Shown here: positions 1 through 37,439 of the stretch, one piece after another
Numbering within the stretch: the first letter of the stretch is position 1
How the letters are laid out: each line of letters begins with the position of its first letter
NCBI GenBank assembly: GCA_965261685.1
Contig: CBDHDI010000019.1
Span: 78,005 to 142,004, forward strand
Source: Dehalococcoidia bacterium
GTDB lineage: Bacteria; Chloroflexota; Dehalococcoidia; UBA2979
Length of the DNA stretch: 64,000 nucleotides
Direction of reading: 5' to 3'
Notes under the pieces: generated by a model
Told to the model about the DNA's origin: nothing
Databases searched by the model: none
What the model saw: the letters and a program-made list of their open reading frames with translations, nothing else
Program-made: the position numbers and the translations under genes

Positions 1-475
1 CACCGCGGGTGTAGTTGTAGGCGGCTCTCCAGCCGGCGGTGAAACTCCTTTCGAAACGGTCCAGTTCCGCCACGTTCGCTCTCCTGCAACTCTGAGCACG
101 ACGACAGTACGCTGGTTGTCTGACAATGTCAATATGTAAGTCTCCTACACGCTATCATCTGTCAAACGCCCTACCCGTCGACGACGGTGGGAGTATCAAC
201 GTGGCGAGCGGGGCGGCGGGGTGGCCTGTCCGCATCCGGCGCAGCCCTGATGCGACTGGGAGTGAGCCGCTCAGTACCCCGGCCGACCGTACGGGCCGGA
301 TTGTGGCGCGGGGCGGCGGCGCGTGGGCCGGCCGTCCGGATCGCGTGCGCGGCTACCCCGCGACCCGGACCCGTTCTGGCCACGCTGGAGCCTATGAGCG
401 AAACGCCTCGGCTCAGCCCGGGGTCGTAAGCGATGACAAGAGGTAGCCTGAGATGGGAGCACGCGCGGACTAACA

Positions 476-3400
476 ATGAGCCACCGGAAGAAGCGTCGGG
501 GTCGACCGAGGAGGAGAAACCCGCCCCTGGCGAGCGGGGCACCTACTCGCGCTCCCGAGCAGGACTGGAGCCGTGCCGGCGCTCACAACATTGCGGGTGT
601 GAGCTTTCAGGTCGCGGTGACCGCGAAGCTTCTTGTGGGCGCACTTGCAGGCCGGTTTCCGTTGGCCCGCGCGACCCCCGAGGGCTCCGAAGACATAGAT
701 GTCGAACTCAGGGATGGGACTCGGGTGCTCGTCCAGGTGAAAGAACGTGCTCCGTCCACACCCTTCGGACGTTCGAATCTCGCGGACGCCCTGCGGAAGA
801 AGAACACTCTCCTCGAAGGAGACGCTGCTCGCCGGTTCGCCCTGGTGACGGACGCGACGCTTGGCGGCGGCCTGGCTCCGACCGGCTGGGAGCGGCCTGT
901 CACGGAGTGCATTGACCGAACCACTGTCGACGAGCTCGCCGCGCACCTCGAATCCGACTTCGACGATCCCCTGGGGGTCCTGGCCCGAACCCACATCGTG
1001 CAGGTAGAGCGAAGTGTCGTCGAAGACACTCGAAGCGAGCTCGCTGAGCTGCAGGTAATCGGGAGCCGGCCGTCTGTGACCGTCCTTGTCTACGCGCGGC
1101 TGGTGGAACAGATCACCGAGATCGCGGCTCGCCAGCGCTCGGCCACACCAGACACCGCCCAGTCGATCACGCCGTCCGACTTGGAGACACTCGCGACGCG
1201 GGTGGTCGAGACGGTAGATGTCGAGAGCCTGGATGAGGCAGTTCGCACCGGACTCGTCGAGCCCGCGGACTTCGGCGTGCGGGCCGATCTGTCCATCGAA
1301 GAATTCCTGGCCGGCGTCGACGTTCTGCCCGCCCACATTGCGGCCGACCTCGACCTGCCCCGCGACGCCGAGGTTCAAGCGCTCACGCACGCTTTGAGCG
1401 AACAGCATTCGGCGCTGCTCACGGGGCCCTCGGGAGCCGGCAAGTCAGCGCTCATGTGGCGGACCGCTCGAGAACTCTCGGAGGGGACGCGATCGTACCG
1501 ACTGCGGCGACTCCTGCCCGAAGATGTCCCGACCCTTGCGAGGTGGCTCCGGCTGCAGGAGCCCTCCGAGCACTATCCGCTGCTGTTGTGCGCCGACAAC
1601 CTCGGCCGTCCAGCCACCGCGGGCTGGTCCGAATTCGCCCGAGAGTTCATCGACAGGCCCGGTGTACTGCTACTGGGAGCCTGCCGGGAGGAGGACTATC
1701 GCCCGGAGCTGGCGGTGGGCCGGACCACGATTGTCGACCCGACACTCGACCGGGGGCTTGCCGAGGGCATCGGAGCGGCACTGGCCGACCGTGACGTCCA
1801 CACGGTCGTGGACATCGCCGAAGCGTTCGAAGTTTCGGAGGGCCTGCTCATGGAGTTCCTCTCGATGCTGCTGACGGGACGCCGCCTCAAACAGGTCGTC
1901 GAGGATCAGGTGGCAGCCCGCCTCTCGGAGGATCGGAGGACCGAGCGAGAGATCCTCCGATACGTAGCAACGGCCCACTCTGCCGGCGTGGCGATTCCGG
2001 CGGAAGTGCTTGAATCGCTGCTTCCCGACCACGACCTCACTCCAGCCCTCGCCGTACTGAACCGCGAGCACCTTGTCGTCGCGGGCGACGGGAACCGTTG
2101 GCTGGGCCTGCACGAGCTTCGCTCCGAGGTCGCGCGCGACTACCTCCACCAATTCCCGCCTCCGGCTGCGGCAACCACCGTCCGGCGCCTCGTGGAGCAC
2201 CTCTCCGTCGATGACGCGAGCCGGATCATCGAGGTGTATGCCCGGCTGGATGCGGACTTGGTGCCTGCTGCGGAGGCGGTGTCTGGGAGGCTGCGTTCAT
2301 CGGACATCCACGCCGGAGACGCCACACGATTGGTGGCGAGTCTGGCGATGGCCGACGCATTCCGCCACGCCCGCGCGTGCCTGGAGGTCATCGAGGAGCG
2401 CCGGCCAAGAAGCCTCGACCCTTGGACGGCACTCTTCTTTGCCTACTCGCATCGCTTCGGTGGGGTCCGTTTAGACGCCCTCATTGCGATTCGCCCTGGT
2501 CTCGCTCAGCTGACCGAGATGGCGGCTGCGCTGCCACCGCGGCCACCGTCGCTGCGGGACGCGTGCCTGCAGGGCCTGTCTCCGAAAGCCGTGCGTTACA
2601 TCGCACTCCGAGGAACCGCCGACGAGGCTGCTGCATGGCTTGAGTCTCTTGAAGGTTCCGGTGCTGAGCCGACGGCGGCAGCTGAAGCGGTCTGGACCCA
2701 CTTCAGCGGAGCGCCGCTCGATGCTGGCGCACGTCTGTCCGCGACCCTCAGATCGCTCGCCGCACCGGAGGACACCGCACACCTGGGTGAGGTGTTTGGG
2801 ACTCTCGATGTCCAGGTACAGCGACTCGCCGCCGAACTCCCGGATTGTATTGGCGCCGAAACGAAGGACGAACCGGACGGAAGGGTGGTCTCCCTGCGAC
2901 TTTTGGCGCCGGAGGATGCCGCAACGCTTCACGACCGGAGCGTGCAGACGTGCCGGGTGATCTTCGACCTGTGCCCTGAAGCCGACATAGCAGAAGTGAT
3001 CGTCGTCACCCCCGGCGGGGATCGCTACTCCGTTGGCGGTGCCGAGGATGGCCACAAGCGTTTCCCAAGGGCCAATCTTCCGCGGGCGCCCCAAACGAGC
3101 GGGAACGCGAATCTCCTTCGCGCGGCCCGGCTCTTGCTCGCTTCCCACTATTGGACCCAACCGCTGCGAGCGCTTGCCGAAGCCTCCAAGCAGCTACTCA
3201 CACTCCGGGAGGACGCGGCAGCCTGGCTGATCAATCCCAATCACAACGCGGGGCGCAGGCGCAGGGCGGTCACGCTCATCGACTCGCTCGTGGCCGAACT
3301 TGCTGCTCAACCGGGCGAGCCGGTAGGTGAAGACGACGGCGAGGTCGGTAGCAAGGCGAGGGACGCCATGAGCGAAGCACTCACCGTCGTTCGCGACATC

Positions 3401-4432
3401 GCGGCCGCTGAGTCCGTCGACGGTCAGCAGTTGGCGGCTCTCGGCTCGCGGTGCAGGAAGGCCGTCGAGCGTCTCACGGCGGCGCGGCTGGCCGGTCTTC
3501 CCACACTCTCAACCGCTGGCGATCCGCTGCCCGACGCGCTCGACGAGATGATCATGCTGCTCGCCGATGTCCTACTCGTGCATGCCGAGGGCCGTGAAGT
3601 GCCCTTCAGGCGCCTTCGGAGGAGTGGCTCGGAGTCATGGGTGGACGTCGCGGATCGTTTGGTGCGCGAGGCCGCCTCGAGCGGTTACGAGGCGGAGCAT
3701 GCGGCTCTGGAAGAAGCTCTCGGGGCGTCGGCTGAGCGCGAACTCCGCCGGGTTGGGCACGTGGATATGGGGTCTTTGTGGTTCCTCACGGACCGGTGGG
3801 TAGTCATCATCGCGGCTGAAAGTAACGATCCTTATCCCTTGGCCTTTGCTGACCGCCTAGCTCCGGAACTGGTCGAGCAGCTTGCCTTCCGAACCTTCGT
3901 GGTCTTCGGCGCTGGGGGACGCATCCTGCCGCTGAACGGGCTCAAGATGGGTACGTCCCAACTCTGGCCAGCGGACGAAGAAGAGTTGCTGGCGATTGCA
4001 TCAGGGCTTGGCACGGAAGTTGTGGAGTCGCCTCACCTTCAAGCCTGGGACGCATTCGTCATGGAGCTCGTTCGAGCTTCCCGCGCGGCAGCCTTGCTTC
4101 GGCTGCGGGGCAACACGAGCTTGGCGCGAGACGACGCGGCGTTGAGATCCCGCTACGAGTCCGCTCGCAGAGCATTGAAGGCGTGTCACCCGGCTCTGCA
4201 CGACGAAGCCACCCGGTTGCTCGAACGCGTCGAGCGTGAGCCATCTGGCGGCGGGCAGACCCTCGCCGAGGAGTGCTATCGCTCGGTGACGCACGGTGAG
4301 CAGAGTGATGAGGTGGCTGACCTTGCTGCTCTCAGGGTCGCCGCGCAGTCCATCGACCTCCCTGACGGTTACGGGGAGTCACGGCCCGACCTGCTCCAAG
4401 AGCGCTTGCCGGCAGGGCAGTCTCCACGCTAG
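476..4432 (+). CDS. Large STAND-type P-loop NTPase (Avs-like) with an N-terminal PD-(D/E)xK-like nuclease motif and a long C-terminal helical region
   Basis: 1318-aa ORF. Walker A LLTGPSGAGKSALMW sits ~310 aa in; Walker B-like LLLCADNL lies downstream. The N-terminal region has DIDVEL...VLVQVKER, a D...(E/Q)xK arrangement typical of restriction-endonuclease-fold nucleases. The long C-terminal alpha-rich region resembles a sensor domain. The start at 476 is uncertain because the N-terminus is Arg-rich. Confidence 0.55.
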   Translation: MSHRKKRRGRPRRRNPPLASGAPTRAPEQDWSRAGAHNIAGVSFQVAVTAKLLVGALAGRFPLARATPEGSEDIDVELRDGTRVLVQVKERAPSTPFGRSNLADALRKKNTLLEGDAARRFALVTDATLGGGLAPTGWERPVTECIDRTTVDELAAHLESDFDDPLGVLARTHIVQVERSVVEDTRSELAELQVIGSRPSVTVLVYARLVEQITEIAARQRSATPDTAQSITPSDLETLATRVVETVDVESLDEAVRTGLVEPADFGVRADLSIEEFLAGVDVLPAHIAADLDLPRDAEVQALTHALSEQHSALLTGPSGAGKSALMWRTARELSEGTRSYRLRRLLPEDVPTLARWLRLQEPSEHYPLLLCADNLGRPATAGWSEFAREFIDRPGVLLLGACREEDYRPELAVGRTTIVDPTLDRGLAEGIGAALADRDVHTVVDIAEAFEVSEGLLMEFLSMLLTGRRLKQVVEDQVAARLSEDRRTEREILRYVATAHSAGVAIPAEVLESLLPDHDLTPALAVLNREHLVVAGDGNRWLGLHELRSEVARDYLHQFPPPAAATTVRRLVEHLSVDDASRIIEVYARLDADLVPAAEAVSGRLRSSDIHAGDATRLVASLAMADAFRHARACLEVIEERRPRSLDPWTALFFAYSHRFGGVRLDALIAIRPGLAQLTEMAAALPPRPPSLRDACLQGLSPKAVRYIALRGTADEAAAWLESLEGSGAEPTAAAEAVWTHFSGAPLDAGARLSATLRSLAAPEDTAHLGEVFGTLDVQVQRLAAELPDCIGAETKDEPDGRVVSLRLLAPEDAATLHDRSVQTCRVIFDLCPEADIAEVIVVTPGGDRYSVGGAEDGHKRFPRANLPRAPQTSGNANLLRAARLLLASHYWTQPLRALAEASKQLLTLREDAAAWLINPNHNAGRRRRAVTLIDSLVAELAAQPGEPVGEDDGEVGSKARDAMSEALTVVRDIAAAESVDGQQLAALGSRCRKAVERLTAARLAGLPTLSTAGDPLPDALDEMIMLLADVLLVHAEGREVPFRRLRRSGSESWVDVADRLVREAASSGYEAEHAALEEALGASAERELRRVGHVDMGSLWFLTDRWVVIIAAESNDPYPLAFADRLAPELVEQLAFRTFVVFGAGGRILPLNGLKMGTSQLWPADEEELLAIASGLGTEVVESPHLQAWDAFVMELVRASRAAALLRLRGNTSLARDDAALRSRYESARRALKACHPALHDEATRLLERVEREPSGGGQTLAEECYRSVTHGEQSDEVADLAALRVAAQSIDLPDGYGESRPDLLQERLPAGQSPR

Positions 4433-4795
4433 TCGGGGGATTCGGGCTAACGCTCCAGCGCCTCCCAAGAGCGGGCTCGCCCCGGCGATCGCGGAGCGCC
4501 GGAGCGAGAACGTGCAGCTGCACGGCGATTGTTTCACGAGATCGAATTCACTCGCCCGGGCACCCCACTGGCTCGGCACCAGCGTATTCCGTTATCCGAC
4601 TTCACGACCGCCGCTGATAGCCCGCGGCGGGTGGACGGAGACCACCCTCGGCGAGCCCGGGTTCGGGCCTTGGCGGGGCCTTCCACAACGCGCGATAATG
4701 TTACCTACCGCGCGTCGGCCGAGGGCCTGATCTCGCCCCGCAGGACCACCGCGACCCACCCGCGAGCGAGCGAGGGCTGCCGCGTGAGTCGCCGA

Positions 4796-7700
4796 TCAGG
4801 GACGACCTTGTGCCCTTGTTCGCCTCGGGGTGACCGGGCTGACATCAGCCACGATGACCGCAATCTTCCGGGCTTCCTCGCCAGTGAGAGTCTCCCCCAG
4901 GCGCCGCTCCAGCTCGGCGGGCGTCGTGGGGCGGACCCCGTGGGGGGGTGCCTGCAGATCATCCTGGCCGAACCACAACACCAGGTAGATTCCATAGCCC
5001 GACGTTTCGGCATCGCGCGTGTAGTGCTTGATCAACTGGTCCCGGATGGCGCTCCACACATCCCGGTGCGCGTCCTTCTTGATCTCCACGGGGACGTTGA
5101 AGCCGCCGCACGAGACGCGGATATCGGACCGCCGGTCCCCCGCGTACTGCCCCTCGGGTTCAGCGTCCACGCCGTCCGGGAGCCTGGCTCTCAGCTGGGA
5201 GAGCAGCGCGTCCCTGCACGAGTTCTCGTGCTTGGGGCGGCCCCGGTCCGGGCGGCCGTGGGCATCCTCGTTCCAGTACGGGCGCCAGTCGTCGCTGTTG
5301 CCGGTCTGGATCGCCTTGGCGATGTCCTCCAGCCGATCGAGCAGGAGTGCGGCCAAGTCGGCCGGATTCGCCGGCTGCTCGTCCGCGAGCGCGCGATGTA
5401 GCTGATCGAGATTCGGGTGGCGGTACGCGGCGTCGCGGTGGAGGACTCGCTGGTCGTCGCGGGCTCGCTCGAGCCGGGCGCGCCAGCGAGCGAGATCAGG
5501 GTCGGACGCTAGCGCGCTCAATGCCTGCGTGGCGTCGTCGCCGGGTAGGGCACTCAGACGCCGTATCAGGCGCTCGATCTTGCCGGAAGCTGTCATCTCA
5601 AGCGTCACGAACCCGGACATGTCCGATGGCGCGAACGAGCGGCCCATCAATGCGATGAGGGTTCTGAGCGCCGGCGCGCGCTCCTCGTAGCTCGGCGAGG
5701 GGAGGCGGACCGCAGAGCCGCTGGAGCCGAAGAATGCAGCGAGCGCCCGCACACGTCGCTCGCGACCACGCACGAATTCGTCGAGTTGTTCGGTGTACGC
5801 CTCGGGCGCGGCGACGAACCCCGCAGCGAGCCAGCGGACTTGCTGGGCCACCTCCATGCTCTGCCGCAAGAGTCTCGCGTCGACGAGCTCGAGCAGGTTC
5901 GACCGGTCAGGATAGGAGAGAGCGATCCAGAGGAGGCGATCGAGAGTCTCCAGCTTGTTGAGACCGGCCCGGAGCGGGAACTTCCGCAGTACATGCAAAG
6001 TGGTCTGGTGCTTCAGGACGGGATCCGCCTCAAGGAGGTTGATGGCCTCAAGCGCCGGAGCGTAGCTGTCACTATGGCGGATCGCCGTCACGAGGCACCG
6101 AGCCGCCACATCCGCAACGACCTTGGAGAACAGGCTCACCCAGACGCTGTGCCAGTGTGGGAACCCATTGAAGCCCGGCGCACTACAGTAGAAGAACGCC
6201 AACCCCGTCCGCACCTGGCTCTCGGTTAGCTCTGCCAGCCGTTCCGGAGGCTCCCACTCGAGGATGTCCAGACCAGCGAGGAACGGGAAGGCGAAGTAGT
6301 GCATCCGGGATGTTCGCTTCAACCGGATGATCTCATCAACGTCTGGGACATCACTCCGCCACACCGTCCCGCGTAGCCCGGCCAGGGCGGCCTCAATGAG
6401 GTGGTCGTCGCCAGCAAGGAGTGTCGAGAGTCGCTCGTTCGGGGTCCGACGACCGTCCCAGTTCGTCCCGTAGAGGAAGTATGCCCGGCCGAGGTTGTGG
6501 AGCAGCCCGAGCGGGGCCTGGTTCTTGCGCAGTGCTTCGGCGTGAGAGCGAACGACGGCGATCCCATCGTCGCGGGCACGTTTCTCCTCCTCATCAGCTT
6601 GACCGACCTGAGCTGCCTCGGTTGCTTCGAACGTGGCACGGCTCGCCGCTCGGTCGAGCAACACCGGAAAATGCTGCTCCAGGACTTCGTGCCCACGAAT
6701 GCGCTCCCTGAGGACATCCTGCGACAGGCCTCGGTTCCAGAGCGGTTCATCATGCGCAAGAAAGGCCCTCTCCAGAAGTTCCTCCGCAGCCCTCGGATGG
6801 GCGATCGCGAGTGCGGCGGCCTGATCGAGGCACCACAGCCCATAGTCGGGCGGGAAGGCGCTCCCATGCAGAGCCCCCCAGACCTCCAGGACATCGAGCC
6901 GGAAGCTGTCACTGCCATGGCAGCGTTCCAGCCCCTCGAGGATCACCGCCTTCTGGACGTCGGGCCGCTGCTGGAGCCACTCGCGAACCTGCAGCAGCGA
7001 CTCGTCCTGGGAATCGGGGTGCCGCCCGAGCGGAAAGACCGCCGAGCGGAGCCAGTCGTAGAGGTGCGGCGTTGTGAGTTGGTCACCGTACGCGGCAAGC
7101 CCGCGGGCAAGCAGCTGTAGCGGGAGCGAGTCGGCCCCTTGGGATTCGAGGGCAGTCCGTGCGCCTGGAAGGCGCTGTGACAGGTGGTCGAGGAGTTCCG
7201 CGACATCGCCCTCTGACGACTGGTTCGGCAAGTGGTGATGCCAGAACAGCCAGTAGTTCCCTGTTGGACGGAGGTAACTGCCTCCCAGATCTGGGTTTCC
7301 GCCGCCCGTGAGATGGTCCCAGACCTCATCGGGGCCGACGGTCTGCGGGTATAGGCGCGACAGCAGCGTTCCGCGCATTTCGTGATCCGGGTCTGGAATG
7401 GACCCCTCGCGGACTTCCTCTAGGACGCGCGTAAGTTCGCTGGTCCGATCGTCGCCTTTGTCGGTAGCACGGAGCGCTGCGTGAAGGGCCAATTCGGTGA
7501 TGTCGAGCGGCCAGGCGACGTCGCGAACCACCGCCAGCAGCGTCGGGATCAACTCGGGGCGGCGCGGCCCTCCTCCCAAGAGCGCTAGCACGAGCCGTGC
7601 CACCGGCTGCCGGTCGGGATCGCGAGACGGGCTCGTCAGGAGGCCGACGATCACCTGCTTCATGTCGGGAGCGGTGAGCGCCCCGAGCGCGCTGGCGGCT

Positions 7701-8950
7701 TCGAGCCACGACACCTCGCGCCGCAGCAGGTTGAGCGCCTCGCTTCGAGTCAGGGCGCGTAGGAGCTTGCTCCGCTCGTCGGTCGAGAAATCGCGGAGGT
7801 CGCCATAGAGGGCGGCCCCGAGAGGATCCCTGGTGATGAGGAGGTCGCGTGCCTCGCTGCGGTGGGCCGCCAGCCAACCTGAGAGGCCCCGCATCTCGGT
7901 GACGACGGCCGCGTCGGCGCCGCTGATCAGCGCGAGCACCCGCCGCGCGGGGAGCCCGTCCCGAATGCGCCGCGCGAGATACCGGGCGCCCAGGAACTCG
8001 GCGACATGGCGGTGGACAGGCGCGAGCCGGCCCCCGCCGACGGCCCCAAACAACTTCGTGCCGATCGCGTGATCGAGAGCGGAGGAATCGGGGTAGTCGC
8101 AGTCACCCAGGGCGAGGAAATCGGGGTCGGCCTCGCCATTTCTGCGGGAGTGTCCGGCCGCACCCGTCACGAGTTGAGTCGCGCAGAGGTAGCCGGCAGC
8201 GTCGAGCAACTGGTCCTGCCCTGGTGGGCGGTCCCCGAGGGCGTGCTCCTCGTTGTGCTCAGTGGCCATCTGAAGGCAGGCCATCTCGAACGTCTCGAGG
8301 CGACTCTCTGGCCAGCCCGCCTTCTTGCTAACCACATCGGCCAGCATGTTGAGGGTCTGAGGGTTGGTGAGGAGGGCGTCGACGCCTCGCTCGCCCGCCC
8401 GTTCCACGAAGGCACGCGCGTCTTCGATTCCGGGGTGGCTGCCCAGGATCCGCTCGATGCCCGAAGGGGTAAGAGGATCGAGCCGAAGCGTCGTGACTGC
8501 CGCGCTAGGAGCCACGGCGTCGAGCCTTGCCCGATCGTTCTCGCCCAGCCAGTCCGCCTCCCGGCACGAGATGCGGAAGGACGGGCGTCCGAGCGCATCA
8601 AGGCGCCGGCGGATGTCGTCGAGGGGCGTGCGCCTGTCGGAGGAGCCAGCACGCACCTCATCGAGGCCGTCGATGAAGAGGGTCTTGTCTTTCCACTCTG
8701 GATATCGAGCGAGGTCCAGCACCAGGAAGTCGCGAGCATCGAGCAGGACGGAGGCTTCGCCTAGTTCCTCGCACTCACGCTTGAAGGCGGTGGTCTTCCC
8801 GGAGCCTGGGTCGCCCAGGAGGATATACGCCGTTTCGGATCGGAACGCGCTCACAGGCTCGGAACTCGCCTCGGGGTCGGGTCGCTCCTGGGGCCGGGGA
8901 ACTCTCGTGCAGGTGCGCGCGACGATGTGCGTCATGGTTCGCCGAACCAT
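4796..8950 (-). CDS. NACHT-like P-loop NTPase with a C-terminal PD-(D/E)xK-like nuclease domain
   Basis: 1384-aa ORF. Walker A ILLGDPGSGKTT. NACHT-type Walker B LFIDGLDEV (hhhhDGxDE). The C-terminal ~150 aa contain DIRVSCGGFNVPVEIKKD (D...ExK) followed by YGIYLVLWFG. Its start overlaps the stop of the upstream COG1373 gene. Confidence 0.55.
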   Translation of the reverse strand: MVRRTMTHIVARTCTRVPRPQERPDPEASSEPVSAFRSETAYILLGDPGSGKTTAFKRECEELGEASVLLDARDFLVLDLARYPEWKDKTLFIDGLDEVRAGSSDRRTPLDDIRRRLDALGRPSFRISCREADWLGENDRARLDAVAPSAAVTTLRLDPLTPSGIERILGSHPGIEDARAFVERAGERGVDALLTNPQTLNMLADVVSKKAGWPESRLETFEMACLQMATEHNEEHALGDRPPGQDQLLDAAGYLCATQLVTGAAGHSRRNGEADPDFLALGDCDYPDSSALDHAIGTKLFGAVGGGRLAPVHRHVAEFLGARYLARRIRDGLPARRVLALISGADAAVVTEMRGLSGWLAAHRSEARDLLITRDPLGAALYGDLRDFSTDERSKLLRALTRSEALNLLRREVSWLEAASALGALTAPDMKQVIVGLLTSPSRDPDRQPVARLVLALLGGGPRRPELIPTLLAVVRDVAWPLDITELALHAALRATDKGDDRTSELTRVLEEVREGSIPDPDHEMRGTLLSRLYPQTVGPDEVWDHLTGGGNPDLGGSYLRPTGNYWLFWHHHLPNQSSEGDVAELLDHLSQRLPGARTALESQGADSLPLQLLARGLAAYGDQLTTPHLYDWLRSAVFPLGRHPDSQDESLLQVREWLQQRPDVQKAVILEGLERCHGSDSFRLDVLEVWGALHGSAFPPDYGLWCLDQAAALAIAHPRAAEELLERAFLAHDEPLWNRGLSQDVLRERIRGHEVLEQHFPVLLDRAASRATFEATEAAQVGQADEEEKRARDDGIAVVRSHAEALRKNQAPLGLLHNLGRAYFLYGTNWDGRRTPNERLSTLLAGDDHLIEAALAGLRGTVWRSDVPDVDEIIRLKRTSRMHYFAFPFLAGLDILEWEPPERLAELTESQVRTGLAFFYCSAPGFNGFPHWHSVWVSLFSKVVADVAARCLVTAIRHSDSYAPALEAINLLEADPVLKHQTTLHVLRKFPLRAGLNKLETLDRLLWIALSYPDRSNLLELVDARLLRQSMEVAQQVRWLAAGFVAAPEAYTEQLDEFVRGRERRVRALAAFFGSSGSAVRLPSPSYEERAPALRTLIALMGRSFAPSDMSGFVTLEMTASGKIERLIRRLSALPGDDATQALSALASDPDLARWRARLERARDDQRVLHRDAAYRHPNLDQLHRALADEQPANPADLAALLLDRLEDIAKAIQTGNSDDWRPYWNEDAHGRPDRGRPKHENSCRDALLSQLRARLPDGVDAEPEGQYAGDRRSDIRVSCGGFNVPVEIKKDAHRDVWSAIRDQLIKHYTRDAETSGYGIYLVLWFGQDDLQAPPHGVRPTTPAELERRLGETLTGEEARKIAVIVADVSPVTPRRTRAQGRP

Positions 8951-10206
8951 TCGTGCGCTGGGGCCGAGAGAAACTCGTTGAGCGGGATCCCACCCTCCCC
9001 GACAACGAGCGGTCGTGGCGCGTCGAACCGCTCTTCAAACGCGCGCATGGCGCGGTCGTTGGCGCGCCCGTCACCGCTCTTGACCTCGATCCCCACAACC
9101 CGGGGGCCTCGCCGGAGTACGAAGTCGACCTCGTGCGGACCGTCTCGCCAGTACGACATGCCCAGGTTCGGCGGAGCCGTGTTGAAGAGGTGCGCCCCCA
9201 CCGCGCTCTCGACGAGTCTTCCCCAGAAGGTGCGGTCGGCCTTCGCTTCAGCAAAGGAGTATCTGGACGCGGCCGTCATGAGCGCGGTGTTGAGCACGTT
9301 GAGTTTCGGGCTCGACGCTCGGCGGCGCTGCGAACTCCCGGAGTGCTTCGGCAGCCCCGTGAGCAAGCCCGCCGTGGACAGCAGATCGAGATAGCGCGCC
9401 AGCGTCGTCGTGTTGCCGGCGTCCAGGAGCTGTCCGAGCATCTTGTTGTACGAGAGGATCTGCCCGGAGTAGGCCGCCCCGAGCTCGAACAGGTTCTTGA
9501 GCAACGCCGGCTTGTCCACTCGGGTCATCGCGAGGAGGTCACGCTCGAGATGGGGCTCGACGAGCGCATGCAGGATGTAGTCCCGCCACCGTTCCTCATC
9601 CCGGATGAGGGTGACGGCGCCCGGGTAGCCGCCGAAGTAGATGTACTCGTCGAGGGTCAGGTCGAACGCTGCGGACATCTCGGGGAACGCCCAGTGCGTG
9701 ATGCGGATCGGTTCGAACCGGCCGGCCAGACTCTCGCTCAGCCCTGACTGCATCTGGAGCGGGGCCGAGCCGAGGACCACAACGTGCAGGGGCACGCTCC
9801 TGGCGCGGTCGGAATCCCAGAGCCCCTTGATGGTGTCGGACCAGTCCGGGATCTTCTGGATCTCATCGAATACGAGCACAAAGCCCTGGGACGACTCCTG
9901 TGCCTGTTGCCGGGCGTGTTCCCAGGTGCGAGCGAGCCACGCTCTGCCGCGCTCCTCTGTGAGTGGGGCAGTGTCCTCGATGGGCGCAGCGAGGGAGATG
10001 CCGGGAGCCGATGGTGCCGGCTCATCGACCGCGAGATACTGGTTCGGCCGGTCGACCTGGGCGAGCGCCTGGTGCACCATCGTGGTCTTGCCGGTCTGGC
10101 GAGGCCCGAAGATCGCGATCAGCCTGTTCGGCGACTCCTCGAGCCGCGAGACGAGGGTTGTTACACTCTCTCGCTGGAAGCGATCCATGGGGCTATGGTA
10201 CGGCAC
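8932..10206 (-). CDS. AAA+ ATPase of the COG1373 type (AAA_14 + DUF4143)
   Basis: 424 aa. N-terminus LIAIFGPRQTGKTTMV (Walker A), then FDEIQKIPDW (Walker B). The C-terminal ...EVDFVLRRGPRVVGIEVKSGD matches the restriction-endonuclease-like DUF4143 module. It lies immediately upstream of the NACHT-like gene on the same strand with a 19-nt overlap. Confidence 0.8.
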   Translation of the reverse strand: MPYHSPMDRFQRESVTTLVSRLEESPNRLIAIFGPRQTGKTTMVHQALAQVDRPNQYLAVDEPAPSAPGISLAAPIEDTAPLTEERGRAWLARTWEHARQQAQESSQGFVLVFDEIQKIPDWSDTIKGLWDSDRARSVPLHVVVLGSAPLQMQSGLSESLAGRFEPIRITHWAFPEMSAAFDLTLDEYIYFGGYPGAVTLIRDEERWRDYILHALVEPHLERDLLAMTRVDKPALLKNLFELGAAYSGQILSYNKMLGQLLDAGNTTTLARYLDLLSTAGLLTGLPKHSGSSQRRRASSPKLNVLNTALMTAASRYSFAEAKADRTFWGRLVESAVGAHLFNTAPPNLGMSYWRDGPHEVDFVLRRGPRVVGIEVKSGDGRANDRAMRAFEERFDAPRPLVVGEGGIPLNEFLSAPAHEWFGEP

Positions 10207-10272: not shown

Positions 10273-11638
10273 AGTAGCGTCCCAGCAAGTGGTGTCACAG
10301 AGGTGGACGTAGGAGACCACCGCGCCATCCTTCACACAGGAATCAGTCACGTGAAGGAGGACTACGGTGGTCAGGGAGAGCGTGAACTTGTTGGAGTTGC
10401 TGCGCAAGCAGGCGGCCGGGGGTGACCTCGACTTCTTGCGTGAGGCCGTCGCGGTGCTCGCCGAGGCGGTGATGGAGGCCGAGGTCGCAGAGCAGGCCGG
10501 CGCCGCCTACGGCGAGCGCAGCCCCGAGCGCATCACCCGGCGCAACGGCTACCGGCCGAGGCGCTGGGACACGCGCGCCGGCAGCATCGAGCTGCAAATC
10601 CCGAAGCTGCGCCAGGGCAGCTACTTCCCCGCCCTGCTCGAGCCGCGCAGGCGCGCCGAGCGCGCCCTGCTCGCGGTGGTCCAGCAGGCGTACGTGGAAG
10701 GCGTCTCCACGAGGCGCGTCGACGACCTCGTGCGCTCGCTGGGCTGCGAGGGCATCTCCAAGAGCCAGGTCTCGAGGATCTGCGCCGAGCTGGACACCGT
10801 CGTCACGAGCTTCCTCGAGCGCCCGCTCGACGGCGGTCCGTACCGCTACCTCTGGCTCGACGCGCTCACCCAGCGCGTGCGCGAGGAGGGCCGTATCGCC
10901 CAGGTCAGCGTCGTCGTCGCCACGGCCGTCAACGCCGACGGCAAGCGTGAGGTGCTGGGCATTGACGTCGGCACGAGCGAGGACGGGGCGTCTTGGCTCT
11001 CATTTCTCCGCGGGCTGGTGGCGCGCGGGCTCTCCGGCGTGGAGCTCGTGACCTCCGACGCCCACCAGGGCCTCAGGGCGGCGATCGCGACCGTCTTCGG
11101 CGGCGCGTCGTGGCAGCGCTGCCGGACGCACTTCATGCGCAACCTGCTCACGCGCGTGCCGAAGAGCGCCGAGGCGCTGGTGGCGACGACCGTGCGCACG
11201 ATCTTCCAGCAGCCGTCGGCGGAGGCGGTGCACGCCCAGCACGCCCGCGTCGTGGAGCAACTGGAGGCGCGCTTCCCCGCGGCCGCGGCGATGCTCGATG
11301 AGGCCGCACCGGAGATTCTGGCGTTCACGGCCTGCCCGGTCGCGCACTGGAAGCAGGTCTGGTCGAACAACCCGCAGGAGCGCCTCAACCGCGAGATCCG
11401 CCGGCGCACCGACGTGGTCGGCATCTTCCCCAACCGCGCCGCGGTCGTGCGCCTGGTCGGCGCGGTGCTCGGCGAGCAGCACGACGAGTGGGCGGTGGCG
11501 AGGCGCTACATGACGATGGTGACCCTGCTGCACCCGCCCGGGCGCGAGGTCACTTCAGGCGAGGAGGTGCTGCTGCAAGCTGCCAGCTAGCAATTGATAA
11601 GGATGGTGCACTGTGACACCAACTTGCGGGACGTGACC
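10273..11638 (+). mobile_element. IS256-family insertion sequence (~1.37 kb) flanked by an 8-bp TSD CTGACCCG
   Basis: Imperfect terminal inverted repeats: AGTAGCGTCCCAGCAAGTGGTGTCACAG at the left end and CTGTGACACCAACTTGCGGGACGTGAC at the right end. CTGACCCG is present at 10265-10272 and again at 11639-11646. The element encloses an IS256-type transposase ORF. Confidence 0.8.
10367..11590 (+). CDS. IS256-family (mutator-type) DDE transposase
   Basis: 407 aa. N-terminal LLELLRKQAAGGDLDFLREAV...ERITRRNGYRPRRWDTRAGSIELQIPKLRQGSYFPALLEPRRRAE is typical of IS256 transposases. Confidence 0.9.
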   Translation: MVRESVNLLELLRKQAAGGDLDFLREAVAVLAEAVMEAEVAEQAGAAYGERSPERITRRNGYRPRRWDTRAGSIELQIPKLRQGSYFPALLEPRRRAERALLAVVQQAYVEGVSTRRVDDLVRSLGCEGISKSQVSRICAELDTVVTSFLERPLDGGPYRYLWLDALTQRVREEGRIAQVSVVVATAVNADGKREVLGIDVGTSEDGASWLSFLRGLVARGLSGVELVTSDAHQGLRAAIATVFGGASWQRCRTHFMRNLLTRVPKSAEALVATTVRTIFQQPSAEAVHAQHARVVEQLEARFPAAAAMLDEAAPEILAFTACPVAHWKQVWSNNPQERLNREIRRRTDVVGIFPNRAAVVRLVGAVLGEQHDEWAVARRYMTMVTLLHPPGREVTSGEEVLLQAAS

Positions 11639-14309: not shown

Positions 14310-14818
14310 GTGGTGAGACTCGCTGGTGTTGACTTCCCCCGGCGCCTGACCGAGGCGCTGGAGAGCGACGAACTCGTTGTCTTCGCTGGTGCGGGGGTCT
14401 CGATGGGAACGCCGGCGAACCTCCCGGACTTTGAAGGCCTCGCGACGGCGATCGCTGCAGGGACCGGCGAAGCCCAGCACGAGAGCGAACCCGTGGATCG
14501 CTTCCTCGGTCGGCTAACGAGCAGGGGCACGAACGTTCACGAACGAGCCGCCGACGAGCTCCGCGGAGGTACCCCTGAACCGACCGCCCTGCACGGCGAC
14601 CTGCTGCGGCTCTACCGGACAGCGCAATCCGTCCGTGTCGTCACGACGAACTTCGATGCGCTGTTCGAGCGGGCGGCGGCGCATGTCTTCGATCGGGCCC
14701 CCTCCGTGTTCACGGCTCCCGCTCTGCCACTGGGCAGCAGCTTCAGTGGGATCGTGCATGTCCACGGGGGTCTCGGCGACCCTCGGGGCATGGTGCTCAC
14801 CGACGCCGACTTCGGCAG
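14310..14818 (+). pseudogene. 5' portion (SIR2_2-type sirtuin domain) of a DSR-like defence gene, interrupted by IS21
   Basis: VVFAGAGVS...TTNFDALFE...HVHGGLGDPRGMVLTDADFG are SIR2_2-family motifs. The frame runs straight into the IS21 terminus at 14819. Confidence 0.7.
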
Positions 14819-14868
14819 TGAAGTCAGCGCTCGGATAGTGATCCAATCAGCGCCCGGATGGTGATCCA

Positions 14869-16386
14869 TTGCGGGGCGTGTCCCAGCATCTCCGGCGACG
14901 GGGCCGCGGAGACTGGGGGGAAGGGATGCTCCGAGTGGAAGACGTGCACGTGTTGCGACACAAGGTGCTGGTCGAAGGTCTGAGCCGGCGGCAGGCGGCC
15001 CGGGAGATGGGGATCAGCCGCAACACCGTGCGGCGCTACCTGAGGCTGCCCGAGCCGGTGCGGGTCGAGCGTGAACCGCGGCGGAAGCCGGTCCTCGAAC
15101 GGGTGCAGCCGCGGCTCGACGCGCTGCTGGAGGAGTGGTCGGGGCGGACGACGGCGAAGCAGCGGCTGACGGCGACGAGGCTGCACCGCCAGCTGCGCGA
15201 AGAAGGCTACGAGGTCGGCGAGACGCTGGTACGGAGCTACCTGCGGGAGTGGCGGCGCCGGCGCGCCGAGGTCTACGTGCCGCTGGTGCACCGCCCGGGC
15301 GACGAGGCGCAGGTCGACTTCTTCGAGGTCACCGTCGAGGTGGGAGGCGAGCGCCGCAAGGCCTGGAAGTTCCTGATGCGGCTGATGTACTCGGGCCGCG
15401 ACTTCGTCCGGCTCTACGACCGCCAGGACCAGGTCGCCTTCCTCGACGGCCACGTGCGGGCGTTCGCCCACTTCGGCGGGGTGCCCGCGCGCATCGTCTA
15501 CGACAACCTCGCAGCGGCGGTGCGGCGCGTGCAGTTCCCCCGGCGCCAGCTCACCGAGCGCTTTGAGGCGCTGGTGAGTCACTACCTGTACGAGCCGTGC
15601 TTCGCGCGGCCCGGCGAGGGCCACGATAAGGGCGGGGTCGAGGGGCGCGGCAGGGGCGTGCGGCTGCAGCACCTCACGCCGATTCCCCGCGGCGACTCGC
15701 TGGCCGAGCTCTCGGACTGGCTGCAGGGGGAGGTGGACCGCCACGCCGCGCCGCGGGTGCATGAGCGCTTCGCCGAGGAGCGGCCGCTGCTGCGCCCCGG
15801 GCCCGGCGTCGCGTTCGAGGCGCGGCGGGTGCAGCCGGTCTCGGTGAGCCGCAGTGCGCTGGTGCGCGCCGAGGGGGCCTGGTACTCGGCGCCGAGCCGC
15901 TGGGCGGGCCTGCGGGCGACGGCGCTGATCGGCACCGACGAGCTGACGCTGCGCTGCCGCGGCGAGGAGGTCGTACATCCCCGACAGCCCTTCGGCGGCC
16001 GCCGGGTGGACTACCGGCACTACCTCGGCGAGCTGGCGCGCAAGCCGCAGGCGGTGCGGCAGGTGGCGCCGGAGCTGGTCGCGGCGCTGGGCGAGCCCTT
16101 CGGGCGGCTCTGGACGCGGCTGGAGCGCGAGCAGGGCGCTCAGGAGGGGGCGCGCACCCTTGCGCGGTTGCTGCGGGCCGTCCACGAGCACGGCGAGGAG
16201 CGCGTGCGCGACGTCCTGGAGCAGGTCCTCGAGCAGGAGCGCTTCGACGAGCTCGCCGTGCAGCGTCTGCTCGCCTCGGCCCGGGCGCCGGAGGCAGTGA
16301 CGGTGCCGGAGCCGCTGCGCGGCTACGAGGTCGAGAGCGTCTCGGCGGCCGTCTACGACCGCCTGCTCGCGGCGGCGGCGCCGTGA
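14869..16386 (+). CDS. istA: IS21-family transposase IstA
   Basis: 505 aa. It has the N-terminal HTH ([21 protein letters not shown]) and the conserved IstA core. It is followed by istB with an overlapping stop/start. Confidence 0.9.
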
Positions 16387-17132
16387 ACAACGCGGCTCGC
16401 GCGGCCGTGCTCGAGGCGCACTGCCGCGAACTCAAGCTGCCCACGATCCGCCGCGAGTACCCCGCGCTGGTGCGCCAGGCCACGCACGACGGGTGGGACT
16501 ACGAGGAGTTCCTCGTGCAGTTGCTCGAGGCAGAGGTGCTGGCCCGCCGCGATAGCGCGGTCGCACGCCTGCTGCGCCAGGCGCGCTTCCCCGACATCAA
16601 GACCTTCGAGCAGCTCGACTGGGACGCGCTCGGGGGCGTCGAGCGGCCACAGCTCGCACAGCTCGCGACCTGCGAGTACATCGAGCGCGCCGACGACGTC
16701 GTCATCGCCGGGCCGATCGGCACCGGCAAGACGCACCTCGCGATCGCGCTCGGCGTCGAGGCCGCCCGCCGCCGCCACCGCGTCGCCTTCATCCGCGCCG
16801 CCGACCTCGTGCGCGAGCTGGTCGAGGCACGTGACGAGCTCACGCTCTCGCGGCTCCATCAGCGTTACCTGCGGGTCGCGCTGCTGATCGTCGACGAGCT
16901 CGGCTTCGTGCCCTTCGAGCGCACCGGCGGCGAGCTGCTGTTCAATCTCCTCGCCGACCGCTACGAGCGGCGCTCGACGATCGTCACGACCAACCTCGCG
17001 TTCAGCGAGTGGGTGCAGGTCTTCGGCGACGAGAAACTCACCACGGCGCTGCTCGACCGCCTCGGGCACCACGCCCACATCCTCACCACGCGCGGCGCTT
17101 CCTACCGGACGCGTCACAGAACACAGACCTGA
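16383..17132 (+). CDS. istB: IS21-family helper ATPase IstB
   Basis: 249 aa with Walker [17 protein letters not shown] and Walker [10 protein letters not shown], the IstB/DnaC-like signature. Confidence 0.9.
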
Positions 17133-17239
17133 CCAACGAAGGACTCAGCACCAAGAACGTCAGCAGCGATCGTGGCGCCGGAGTGGATCAACATCCGAGC
17201 GCTGACCTGGATCGCTATCCGAGCGCTGTTGACAGGCAG

Positions 17240-20022
17240 GGCGTACCTGACCGAGGGATGGGCGAGGCGCTTCCTGGTCGACCTGTTTCGCACGCACACC
17301 GTCCTGTTCGTCGGCTACAGCCACGGCGACACGGTCATGAACTACCTGTCGCGAGCCCTGACTCCGGACGCTGGCGACCGGTTCGCGCTCACCGACGAGC
17401 CTGACAGCGCGAACTGGCAGCTGCTCGGCGTCGAGCCCATCGGCTACGAGAAGTCAGCGGAAGGCGACCACAGTGCGCTCGCAGAGGGTGTCCGGCGTCT
17501 CGCCGACTACAGCCGGCGGGGGCTCCTCGACTGGCAGCGCGACATTGCCGACATCGCCAAGAACCCGCCCCCTCTTGATGACGAGGCCACAGACCTGATC
17601 GACGACACCCTGTCCGACCCGGAGCGATGCCGCTTCTTCACCGATGCCGCATCGCATGTGGACTGGATCGCATGGCTCGAACGACGCGGGTATCTGGCCG
17701 CGCTGTTCGAGACCGCGAACCTCACCGAACGTGATGGACGACTGGCGCGATGGCTGGCGGAGCGCTTCGCAGGGGAACACGCCAGCTCGCTATTCCTGCT
17801 GATTGGACGCAACCGCCTGCGGGTTCATCCGTCGTTCTGGCGGGAACTTGCACGGGTGGTGCAAGACAAGGATCGCCCGCTGAGCGCCGCCCCTCTGGCT
17901 CGATGGGTCTCGCTGCTCCTCGCGACCGACTCCCGGATACCCGACGCCAATCTCCTGATGAATTCCCTGGGTGAGCGCTGCGCCGAAGCGGGGCTGACGG
18001 ACGCCCTTCTCGACGTGTTCGACGCGATGGCCGCCGGTGGCCTCGCGATCGAACCGGGGTTCGCCGTGGTGAGCGAGGACGACGGCGAACGTGCGGTCAG
18101 GGTTGAGACAGACCAGCAGCATCACCAGATGGACCAGTTCTCTCTGGAGAGGCTGTACGAGGACCACCTGAAGACCAAGCTCCAGGAAGCGGCTGAATCC
18201 CTGTTGGAGCGGGTAGTTCGCCGCCTGGCGGAGCGGCACCGCACGCTCCGTTCCTGGCAGCAGGCCACCCGGGACGACGACGCGATGAGCTTTCACCGGA
18301 GCGCGATCGAACCCCACGAACAGGACAGCCATCCACAGCTGATCGATGTGCTGATAGACGCAGCTCGTGACGCGCTCGAACACCTGGTTGCGGCTCGCCC
18401 GGACGCCGGGGCGAGGTGGTGCGATCGTTTGGTGGAGGCGGAGGCGCCGCTGTTGCGCCGCCTCGCCGTGCATGCGTTGCGGAGTCGGAGTGACCTCGGC
18501 GCGGACGAGAAGGTCGGGTGGCTGCTGTCCCGCGTCGGCCTGCATGACAGGGCAACGCATCACGAGACGTTTCTGGCGGTACGCGCCACCTACCCCGAGG
18601 CAAGTGTGCCGCAACGCCAGGCGACCATCGATGCCATCCGGACGTACGAGTGGCCCTCTGACGACGACAGGGAGCGCTACACGGCCTATCGACACCTCGA
18701 GTGGTTCCAGTGGCTGCGTGATTCGGACCCGGCGTGCGATCTGGCCAGGGAGGCCCTTGAGGGCGTCCGGCAACGGTACCCAGACTTCCGGCCGAGCGAG
18801 CACCCGGACCTCACCCACTACCACTGGAGCGGCGACTATGAGGGTCCTGAGACTCCGTGGAGCCCCGAGGAGCTGCTTTCGCGGCCTGCTGGCGAGAGCC
18901 TCGAACAGCTCCTGTCGTTCCGTGACGACGACCCGTTCGAGCCGAGTCGCGACGGGCTCTTGCGCAGCGTGGCGGAAGCGGCTAAGCGAGACTTCACGTG
19001 GGGGCTCGCACTGGCCGCCGCGCTGTCCGAGTCGGAGGACTGGGACAGCGATCTCTGGCCGCCGCTGCTGCGCTCATGGTCCGGCGGGCTCGATGAAGAC
19101 AAGCACCGTCAGGCCTTTGCCCGGCTGGGCGATGCCGAGCTCCACCAGCGCCAGATTCAGGCCATCGCTGACATGCTCCTCGCCCTGGTCAAGGATGGGG
19201 GACTTCCCTACGCGTCGGCGCTGCTTAAGGAGTCGAATCAGCTTGCTCGCAGGCTCTGGGCGCACTGCGGTCAAGACGATGGGGAGCCGGGTTCGGAAGG
19301 CTGGTTCGCGGCTGCAATCAACCACCCAGCCGGCGCGCTCACACAGTATTGGCTCTTGAGCCTCTCGTTGTGGAGGAACCGGCACGAGACGCGACCGGAC
19401 GCCATGGATGAGGAGCACTCCTCCGCTCTGCTGCGGGTGATCAATGAACGGGCAGTCGCCGGGAGACTGGGAAGGACCGTTCTGGCCCAGTCCCTGGGAT
19501 TCCTGCTGGCTGCCGATGAAGCGTGGACGAGAGCGCACCTCATTCCGCTGTTTGAAGACACCGACGGCGACGACTACCAGGCTGTCTGGGACGGCCTACT
19601 GCACGGGCGGATGGATCGCAACGTGGTCACTGCGATGGAGGGTGCGATCTTCGCGGCGATCCCTCACATGAGCGATCTGTTTCCGAGTCACAGACAGCAA
19701 CGCGAAGCGTTCATCGCACTGTGCACGGCTGTCGTCACGTACTTCGTCGACGATCCGCTGGACGCCTGGACACCCGGGTTCTTCAAGGCCGCGGACGACT
19801 CGGACAAGCGTCTCTTCGCGTGGAGCGTCGGCAAGAGTATTCGCGGAGTGGATGACGCAGGCCAGCGAGAGTGGTGGGAACGTTGGCTCAAGCAGTACTG
19901 GGAAAACCGGCTTCAAGGCGTCCCTGCACCCCTCAGCGAGGGCGAAGTGGCTGCGATGGTCGATTGGCCACGCTGCTTTGAGAGCCTCTTCCCCGAGGCT
20001 GTCGACCTTGCAGTCAGGATGC
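17240..20022 (+). pseudogene. 3' portion of the DSR-like SIR2 gene (remainder of the SIR2 domain plus ~900-aa C-terminal domain), truncated by IS1380
   Basis: Directly after the IS21 TSD the frame reads RAYLTEGWARRFLVDLFRTHTVLFVGYSHGD (SIR2_2 GYS..D motif). About 925 aa without P-loop motifs follow. From ~20023 the ORF runs into IS1380 sequence, so its last ~50 aa are IS-derived. Confidence 0.6.
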
Positions 20023-24536: not shown

Positions 24537-24794
24537 GAGCTTAAGCTCGTCGGCCTTTTCGTCAGTTACGTAGACGTAGCCCTCGTCGATCAGTCGGTTG
24601 CCCGCGAGGTTGCTACCTCGGATGACTGGGACACCACTCGCCACGAAGTTGTCGGTCTTGATGCGCGATCCGAATGGGCCCATGGCTATCGCGTTCGGGG
24701 TCGCCGCCTTCAGGTCATCAATCTTGACAAGTCGCTGTTCGACGTCGCTAGGCAAGGTCGTCGAACCTGGCCCTGATCTCGTCTTGCAGTGCAC
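24537..24794 (-). pseudogene. hsdS: Truncated type I restriction-modification specificity subunit HsdS (N-terminal ~85 aa only)
   Basis: The minus-strand frame reads ...NAIAMGPFGSRIKTDNFVASGVPVIRGSNLAGNRLIDEGYVYVTDEKADELK, the characteristic HsdS target-recognition stretch. It overlaps the hsdM stop. The frame continues into IS1380 sequence at 24536. Confidence 0.6.
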
Positions 24795-26298: not shown

Positions 26299-26301
26299 GT
26301 C

Positions 26302-26517
26302 TCATCCCTTGGCCACGCCCATGTAGTGCTGGGCGATGGCGGTGCCCGCAACTACCATGCGGTGGCGAGCATTGTAGCGATGGAGCCAGTGCAGGGTCTG
26401 GCGCATCCGTTCTGGTAGCTGAGGGGGAGCAAAGTAACCCGCATGCGTGCATGGGCAGGGAAAGTCGTCGCACTCTTGGAGCGATGCCCTCCCCGCTCCA
26501 GGTACGTCCCTTCCCAT
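26302..26517 (-). CDS. Small hypothetical protein (71 aa, CxC-containing) immediately upstream of hsdM
   Basis: The ORF ends 4 nt before the hsdM start. Its coding status is unsupported beyond position and frame. Confidence 0.3.
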   Translation of the reverse strand: MGRDVPGAGRASLQECDDFPCPCTHAGYFAPPQLPERMRQTLHWLHRYNARHRMVVAGTAIAQHYMGVAKG

Positions 26518-26650
26518 CAGTAGGTGACGGCGAGGGCTAGGACAACGGAGCGTCCCGCTGGGGTGGATTCGTGTGGTCAGGGTCGTCTCCCCACACGCCG
26601 GCGTGACAGCCAGGCGGGCGCGCGCGTCTCACGGCGACCGGAGGTGAAGA

Positions 26651-34179: not shown

Positions 34180-34290
34180 GTTCGGTTCTCCTTCGTGCAG
34201 TGCTTGGAAACGAGAGCGGGGCCGCCCCGGTCAGGGAGCGGCCCCGTGTGCGCCCGCACGCGGCGGGCGGCGTCTGTGTGCCGTGGTTGG

Positions 34291-34689: not shown

Positions 34690-34884
34690 TGTTCAGGTTC
34701 TCCTTCTGGTGATGGTTGTCACCGTGGTGGTGCGGTCTCGCCGCACCTGGTTCGAAACGACGGCGAGGCCGCCCCGAAGGACGGCCCCGTGTGCGCTCCC
34801 GGAAGGGAGCGTCTCTGCAAGCGCTTGTGCTTCAGGCACCTGCGATGGGCACCTCCTTTCGTTCATTCGCCGGCTTTCGGGTGC

Positions 34885-37316: not shown

Positions 37317-37439
37317 TTCGGTGCTCCTTGTGCTGTGGCTCGTGCCGGTGTCGTGCGCCCTCGCGGGCATGAAGAGGGGCCGCCTCCAAAGAGGCGGCCC
37401 CATGGCTGGGTGGATACGGTGGGCCGGAGCCCAGGGTCG

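Follow-up and report, generated by a model that had tools for sequence, protein, structure and literature searches.

Does a long gene at the edge of a mobile element encode a self-contained immune receptor, or one half of a pair of giant nucleoside triphosphatases (NTPases) facing each other? This question is raised by the gene at positions 476..4432 (+) of a 64,000-nucleotide stretch of contig CBDHDI010000019.1 from a Dehalococcoidia bacterium, which was analysed as a whole and is called the window hereafter. A sequence-only reading of the window had described the 1318-residue gene product as an Avs-like STAND NTPase with an N-terminal restriction-endonuclease-fold motif, convergent with an AAA/NACHT operon in a dense defence hotspot. 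We established in silico which domains and conserved motifs this protein has, that its architecture is fixed and no partner gene goes with it, and what surrounds it in genomes; it combines a Cap4-like nuclease, an nSTAND5 NTPase, and a family-specific predicted sensor. The protein is likely to be a stand-alone, single-polypeptide antiviral STAND (Avs-type) pattern-recognition nuclease.

The gene itself leaves little room for an artefact. It is an intact open reading frame (ORF) starting with ATG, as the sequence-only reading had it, and its G+C content by codon position (0.74/0.50/0.74) is a coding pattern. We estimated from the base composition that 1318 codons free of stops at ~66% G+C would occur by chance with a probability of ~1e-14. 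The smaller ORFs that overlap 476-4432 on either strand are what high G+C commonly produces. The third-position G+C of 0.74 is lower than the 0.90-0.95 of many other genes in the window, including the conjugation genes, which fits horizontal acquisition. The gene looks monocistronic: the gene downstream converges on it, and in the matching metagenomic contig L002 the upstream gene is divergent. Scanning positions 1-5000 of the window revealed no promoter-like site 5' of the gene and just one weak hairpin resembling a terminator, at 4511-4524. Scans of the 64-kb window for tRNA genes and Rfam families gave no match.

What is the protein made of? A homologue search found 144 proteins, nearly all of ~1300 residues and unnamed. 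We judged the invariance of residues in alignments of 36 and 56 homologues, down to ~27% identity, and built two AlphaFold2 models from the family alignment, covering residues 1-600 (predicted local distance difference test, pLDDT, 88.8) and residues 541-1318 (pLDDT 88.0). From the profiles and the model, residues 38-270 (587..1285, +) are very probably a Cap4/LmuA-type PD-(D/E)xK nuclease domain, the predicted effector. Its predicted catalytic motif, PEGSEDID-x11-VQVK at residues 68-89 (677..742, +), lies in the block ATPEGSEDIDVELRDGTRVLVQVKERA (residues 66-92), or PEGSEDIDVELRDGTRVLVQVKE when counted over residues 68-90. The D...QVK block picked out in the sequence-only reading is real, as P68, E69, D73, D75, Q87, and K89 are invariant in both alignments. 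In the model, residues 38-125 follow an alpha-beta-beta-beta-alpha-beta order (helix 39-57, strands 63-68, 74-78, and 83-89, helix 99-107, strand 120-125), in which D73 and D75 are located at the start of beta2 and Q87-V-K89 on beta3. An aspartate at beta2 together with (E/Q)xK on beta3 is the canonical layout of PD-(D/E)xK nucleases. The LmuA profile of PADLOC matched the window protein with an expectation value (E) of 2.9e-4 and 19 of the 36 family members, at best with 3.9e-9. A Foldseek search, in which the query was the whole N-terminal half and not the nuclease alone, identified LmuA (9hr5, E 2.7e-7) and HerA-DUF4297 (9c1m, E ~3e-7). One plasmid homologue also carries the NCBI annotation 'dsDNA nuclease domain-containing protein'. 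The LmuA profile, the structural matches, including the one to Avs3 described below, and the order of the secondary structures all support the restriction-endonuclease fold that had been proposed.

The nuclease domain is framed by two conspicuous segments. It is preceded by a polybasic tail, MSHRKKRRGRPRRRNPP..., at residues 1-37 (476..586, +), which is disordered in the model (pLDDT <50). Most full-length homologues keep the basic composition of this tail of the window protein (MSHRKKRRGRPRRR...) rather than its sequence: a 12-residue window with at least six lysine or arginine residues was found in 73 of the 117 full-length homologues having a tail of at least 15 residues, and the median net charge is +6. 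Some gene callers place the protein start after the basic tail, for example in P0001. On the other side, the linker before the P-loop strand, FLAGVDVLPAHIAADLDLPR at residues 271-296 (1286..1363, +), is the most conserved stretch of the protein, with 85% identity among close and 60% among distant homologues. F277, G280, P285, D293, and R296 of the linker are invariant in the 36 homologues, and D293 and R296 reach at least 90% in the 56. This linker may serve as an oligomerisation or autoinhibition element.

The central part, residues 297-560 (1364..2155, +), is a STAND NTPase with predicted nucleotide-binding, helical, and winged-helix domains. The central Walker A and B motifs of the sequence-only reading are present as GPSGAGKS at residues 317-324 (1424..1447, +), invariant in the 36 homologues, and as the strand LLLCADNLGR at residues 369-378 (1580..1609, +) with an invariant D374. 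At the end of strand beta4, an R-E-E-D sequence at residues 404-407 (1685..1696, +) provides R404 as a candidate sensor-1 arginine, and the winged-helix domain contains WLGLHELR at residues 542-549 (2099..2122, +). In the alignments of 36 and 56 homologues, G544, H546, and R549 show no variation and W542 almost none; R404 and E406 are invariant or nearly invariant. The strand order of the model fits a P-loop domain, followed by helices at residues 426-502 and by a helix/hairpin/helix unit at residues 509-557 bearing H546. Judged from its conservation and its position in the model, H546 might be equivalent to the nucleotide-contacting histidine in the winged-helix domains of STAND/NLR proteins. 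All 36 members match Pfam nSTAND_NTPase5 (best E 8.4e-9), and the family also matches nSTAND1 and, weakly and in 11 of the 36 members, nSTAND3. We did not find the term 'nSTAND5' described in the papers of the Aravind group that were consulted. When the PDB was searched by Foldseek with the N-terminal model (residues 1-600), Avs3 (8dgc) came first with E 1.3e-14, followed by SAMD9 (E 2e-10), Avs4, the LmuA tetramer, HerA-DUF4297, Avs5 (EfAvs5, E 1e-6), MalT, CED-4, and Dark. The matches to STAND proteins span E values from 1e-14 to 1e-5. A structural domain scan, as the sequence-only reading had suggested, placed Avs3 at the top and also found the nuclease fold.

The remaining part of the protein, residues 561-1295 (2156..4360, +), is a family-specific C-terminal domain, which we predict to be the sensor. 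The long helical C-terminus noticed earlier is largely what the confident model (pLDDT 88) displays, with the addition of two small alpha/beta sub-domains: a helical region at residues 561-789, an alpha/beta insert at ~790-865, long helices at 870-1082, a second alpha/beta insert at ~1085-1180, and terminal helices. Distant members are 18-29% identical in the sensor, compared with 38% in the nuclease domain and 42-44% across the NTPase modules. The sensor is thus the fastest-diverging part, which is the pattern expected of a ligand sensor. Only W893, P949, and R1211 are invariant in this domain among the 36 homologues. They form no catalytic-looking cluster, and an additional C-terminal enzymatic domain was rejected on this account. 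Neither tetratricopeptide repeats (TPR) nor any other Pfam family was matched in residues 561-1318 at E<=1, and a self-comparison by hhalign identified no internal repeat in the domain (best E 0.07). The sequence-only reading had been prepared to give up its assignment if the N-terminal domain lacked a nuclease-fold match and the C-terminal region was also not repeat- or TPR-like. The nuclease fold was found, but the C-terminal region shows no detectable resemblance to TPR or other repeats.

Is this combination of domains a peculiarity of one genome? An exhaustive profile search with the sensor only, among 1.84 billion representative proteins, returned 389 clusters (clustering at 50% identity) with E<=1e-3, of which 142 had E<=1e-30. 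The sensor begins at about residue 500-685 in every full-length hit. The nuclease domain is present in all 60 representatives of at least 1150 residues, 58 of which have the strict Walker A pattern, and no swapping of effector or sensor was seen among these 60 full-length representatives. As all of them have the same parts, the architecture is fixed, and the tripartite effector-NTPase-sensor layout proposed for the window protein holds throughout the family; distant relatives in other phyla also have all three parts. Searches of a 5.8-billion-protein index with the sensor alone and with the nuclease profile returned only fragments of the same family and no bridge to other architectures. The family is found in Chloroflexota, Actinomycetota, Acidobacteriota, Pseudomonadota, and Dadabacteria, with members in Dehalococcoidia, Thermoanaerobaculia, Arthrobacter, Kribbella, Hyphomonas, Henriciella, Marivita, Rubrivivax, and Dadabacteria, among others. 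Homologues occur on 12 plasmids, seven of them conjugative, and no family match was found in 50,697 phage records. On two plasmids, Sphingopyxis pMC4 (L021, 6998-11322) and an Arthrobacter plasmid (L022, 7046-12388), the homologues are apparently truncated, to 632 and 1104 residues, and both stop just before an adjacent IS21 element.

The protein appears to work without a dedicated partner. No conserved neighbouring gene was found across the window and seven annotated homologue loci, suggesting a single-gene system. Usually, the homologues have restriction-modification or toxin genes as neighbours or reside on conjugative elements: type I restriction-modification genes close by (L001, L002, and L019), DarT-Macro directly downstream (L019), an Eco57I-like gene, PIN, and an integrase (L018), PemK and transposases (L003), and conjugation genes (L002, L004, and L022), where the homologue on the Arthrobacter plasmid of L022 adjoins type IV secretion genes. 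In the window, the gene is located at the edge of an integrative conjugative element (ICE).

The facing operon was considered as a possible partner. It consists of an EruA-like NACHT gene (4796-8950, -), convergent with the gene under study and scoring 894 bits against the NCBIfam model NACHT antiphage EruA (cut-off 1000), and a PDC-S01 gene with AAA_14 and DUF4143 domains (8932-10206, -; PADLOC PDC-S01, E 5e-161). The two genes of the operon overlap by 19 nt. The metagenomic contig L002 is 99.2% identical to positions 1-4772 of the window and then runs almost straight into the IS256-type transposase found at 10367-11590 of the window. The 6-kb segment 4773-10824, which holds the two operon genes along with the 5' part of the transposase gene, is missing at positions 14245-14438 of L002. 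Because the operon is missing beside a 99% identical gene, the two giant NTPase genes are independent modules sharing a hotspot. A two-gene system with the NACHT operon was rejected, as the operon is an indel between strains that are 99% identical in this region. The convergent arrangement described in the sequence-only reading is real, but the facing operon has no functional tie with the gene under study. The comparison shows the gain or loss of a defence cassette next to an insertion sequence (IS) on a conjugative element. The orthologue in L002 is also intact and differs from the window gene in 15 codons, eight synonymous and seven nonsynonymous. From these 15 codons we roughly estimate a ratio of nonsynonymous to synonymous substitution rates (dN/dS) of ~0.3, consistent with a maintained gene.

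The EruA-like protein deserves a separate remark. It ends with RRSDIRVSCGGFNVPVEIKKD, where the C-terminal ~150 residues (4796-5200) resemble, by eye, a PD-(D/E)xK motif ('DIRV...VEIKK'), and neither profiles nor sequences in the PDB supported a nuclease motif in this protein. We did not find the name 'EruA' in the literature, and a tie to Erebus/Avs10 is a guess from the name.

How might such a protein work? The trigger, the oligomerisation, the DNA substrate, and the abortive infection proposed below are drawn by analogy from SeAvs3, SeAvs7, and LmuA. SeAvs3 and SeAvs7 are Cap4-STAND-sensor proteins, the apo forms of which, in the published model, sequester the nuclease; according to this model, a phage protein opens the NTPase, ATP drives tetramerisation, and the Cap4 tetramer cleaves double-stranded DNA (PMC13581612). 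LmuA must assemble into a tetramer, in which two nuclease domains are paired, before it cuts DNA, and the lysine of its PD-(D/E)xK site was mutated to avoid toxicity to the host (10.1101/2025.03.14.643221). By analogy, the NTPase of the present protein would be closed at rest, probably with ADP bound, and the Cap4-like nuclease would be kept apart as an inactive monomer. The large C-terminal domain would bind a ligand foreign to the cell, most likely a protein conserved among phages. The ligand would open the NTPase, ATP would displace ADP with K323 as the nucleotide-binding lysine, and the NTPase modules would oligomerise, probably into a tetramer. The oligomer could then join the PD-(D/E)xK domains into an active site formed by D73/D75, Q87, and K89, which would cut double-stranded DNA without sequence preference, so that phage replication stops and the infected cell is sacrificed. 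The gene itself would move as cargo of conjugative elements and defence islands.

Several observations weigh against this interpretation. Pfam Cap4_nuclease (PF14130) matched only one of the 36 members, with E 0.0039, and against nSTAND5 the window protein reached 27.7 bits where the gathering cut-off is 34. When compared with PDB sequences, both the protein and the family profile gave matches limited to the P-loop. D374 of the Walker B strand is followed by asparagine, and because the second acidic residue is missing, ATP hydrolysis may be weak or absent. No fold match to the C-terminal domain was found in the PDB (E<0.1) or among predicted viral structures, the sole resemblance being that shown by an ~80-residue ferredoxin-like sub-domain. 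As the sensor lacks TPR character and has no likeness among solved or viral structures, a protein ligand is an assumption by analogy. Finally, one homologue (L020) is located among housekeeping genes beside an RHS toxin.

We still regard the antiviral reading as likely. The same machine might have another target. It would then be a weapon borne by ICEs and plasmids that senses a protein or a DNA intermediate of incoming plasmids or ICEs, much as Lamassu/DdmABC acts against plasmids, and the polybasic tail would aid DNA binding. The gene is found repeatedly on conjugative elements (the ICE of the window, L002, L004, the Arthrobacter plasmid, and seven of the 12 plasmids), the phage records hold no match, the nearest nuclease profile is that of LmuA, whose systems act against plasmids, the basic tail is conserved, and the sensor is unlike the TPR sensors known to bind phage proteins. 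However, defence genes generally ride on mobile elements, and their location does not discriminate between the two targets. Wherever the trigger of an Avs family is known, it is a phage protein (PMC13581612), and several homologues adjoin anti-phage restriction-modification and DarTG genes, away from conjugation genes. We consider a target on competing elements unlikely on balance. A bolder version, in which the C-terminal domain is a new kind of STAND sensor (fixed, non-repeat, and mixed alpha/beta) that might sense something other than a core structural protein of phages, with the tail pre-positioning the nuclease on DNA in an ICE-borne weapon against other elements, seems to us a shade less likely still. 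The sensor might in that case recognise a component of conjugation or replication, or a nucleic-acid intermediate, of rival mobile elements.

Could the gene instead be a decaying, inactive copy of a toxic gene heading for loss, with no current function in the source genome? Database searches returned many fragments of the family, the two truncated plasmid homologues each end just before an IS21 element, and the island in the window is riddled with IS elements, one of which apparently splits a neighbouring SIR2 gene. But all 1318 codons of the ORF are uninterrupted and none of the invariant residues is lost, and its 99% identical orthologue is intact too, with the rough dN/dS given above. We consider decay highly improbable. 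A non-immune STAND protein, such as a signalling protein or a transcription regulator of the MalT/AfsR type, would account for MalT among the structural matches to the NTPase module, and STAND clades without a defence role are scattered between those that have one (PMC13581612). Yet the protein has no DNA-binding helix-turn-helix output; its output is a nuclease with an invariant catalytic motif, and the sporadic, horizontally transferred distribution and the company of defence islands speak against such a role. We give a non-immune role hardly any weight.

How does the likely antiviral STAND nuclease relate to the systems already described? The libraries compared were PADLOC-DB 2.0.0 and NCBIfam r20, with the models of Avs6-24 outside the set; the two libraries presumably include AVAST types I-V and bNACHT. 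At E<=1, the window protein matched only LmuA and PDC-M46A in PADLOC, and the 36 members matched LmuA, mad8, PDC-M46A, and SspC at E<=0.01. No antiphage model of NCBIfam r20 matched the window protein. The protein is Avs-like in its architecture and structural similarity and belongs to no named family among the models compared, which did not contain Avs6-24. The label 'Avs-like' can be retained for the architecture and the structure, but not as membership in a named family.

The closest relatives in organisation are Avs3 (8dgc) and Avs7, in which a single polypeptide likewise runs from a Cap4-type nuclease through a STAND NTPase to a large C-terminal sensor, and which are also encoded by single genes in defence islands. 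A similar tetramerisation driven by the ligand and ATP might be expected here by analogy. In contrast to these likenesses, there is no detectable sequence similarity, no AVAST/Avs name is among the PADLOC matches, the NTPase profile is that of Pfam nSTAND5, and the hosts are Chloroflexota, Actinomycetota, and Alphaproteobacteria, not enterobacteria. A TPR-like sensor of alpha-helical repeats is typical of Avs proteins, although not universal. The present sensor is not TPR-like and has no match to the sensors of Avs3 or Avs4 in the PDB. To our knowledge, a polybasic N-terminal tail is not known from Avs3 or Avs7.

LmuA of Lamassu (9hr5) has the closest nuclease profile and is matched in structure as well. 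Its PD-(D/E)xK site needs the catalytic lysine and is active only on oligomerisation (10.1101/2025.03.14.643221). Lamassu requires the SMC-like LmuB and LmuC, whereas here one polypeptide joins the nuclease to a STAND switch and a sensor of its own. Lamassu was rejected because neither LmuB nor LmuC was found near the gene in the window or at any of the seven annotated loci of homologues. Avs5/SAMD9-type proteins (9jap and 9zjs) resemble the window protein in the NTPase structure and the tripartite immune architecture. Avs5 combines a SIR2 effector with an NTPase of Pfam nSTAND3 (10.1101/2025.07.08.663546), in contrast to the nSTAND5 matches of the whole present family and the weak nSTAND3 matches of a minority, and the sensors differ. 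The comparison with bNACHT suggested in the sequence-only reading gave a negative result: Pfam gave no NACHT match in the window protein or the 36 members, and bNACHT/NACHT was rejected as the clades matched are nSTAND5, nSTAND1, and nSTAND3. The EruA-like neighbour is likewise a giant single-chain NTPase of the STAND world in the same island, but it belongs to the NACHT clade, has its NTPase at the N-terminus, is paired with the PDC-S01 ATPase, and is present or absent independently of the gene under study.

The wider setting agrees with the dense defence hotspot of the sequence-only reading, which can be specified as an IS-riddled defence island on an ICE. Transfer genes at 40-51 kb encode TrbL, a VirB4/TraC-like ATPase, a TrwB-like coupling protein, and a Replic_Relax relaxase. 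Also on the ICE backbone (33574-51158) are genes for SSB, a Rad52-like protein, and Toprim, assigned through their similarity to L002. Compared with L002, this backbone is rearranged (inverted), and it has 70-83% DNA identity with a metagenome-assembled genome of Dehalococcoidia (L005). The IS-rich cargo island carries the EruA-like NACHT and PDC-S01 genes, a split SIR2/DUF4020 gene, HsdM, a Schlafen/AlbA_2 protein, and a helicase with a methyltransferase. The SIR2_2/DUF4020 (Dsr1-like) gene is apparently split by an IS21 element, with the N-terminal fragment at 14310-14864, istA at 14869-16386, istB at 16383-17132, and the remainder at 17172-20168, and its 3' end enters another IS copy starting at 20019. 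The latter is a 1671-bp IS (DDE_Tnp_1_4) present as two direct copies, 20019-21689 and 22866-24536, which are 99.94% identical and flank an IS5-like transposase (21738-22712) in an arrangement resembling a composite transposon. An HsdM methylase (24748-26298, -) with no obvious adjacent HsdR or HsdS is followed by the Schlafen/AlbA_2 protein (26651-27940). This region (24748-27940) may represent what is left of a type I restriction-modification system, or an atypical one. At the far end of the window, an ORF of more than 3760 residues (52712-64000, -) runs off the end, and its 26 Calx-beta repeats together with LapA and cadherin-like domains suggest that it probably encodes a surface adhesin.

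In summary, the family is of the known Cap4-STAND (Avs3/Avs7-like) kind, and the unusual non-TPR sensor is its only distinctive feature. A survey in 2026 by Lee et al. sorted prokaryotic STAND proteins into 589 clades, 198 of them defence-associated, with 684 sensor clusters and the names Avs1-24 (PMC13581612). Because several members have NCBI accessions, such as WP_354225680.1, MYB50485.1, WP_317153983.1, and WP_150116985.1, the present family is probably somewhere in that catalogue, uncharacterised. If confirmed, the finding would add one more family to the bacterial STAND pattern-recognition receptors and no new principle, in hosts poorly sampled for immunity, namely soil Chloroflexota, Actinomycetota, and marine Alphaproteobacteria. 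Because the sensor is not of the TPR type, its ligand could then widen the list of molecular patterns that bacteria monitor.

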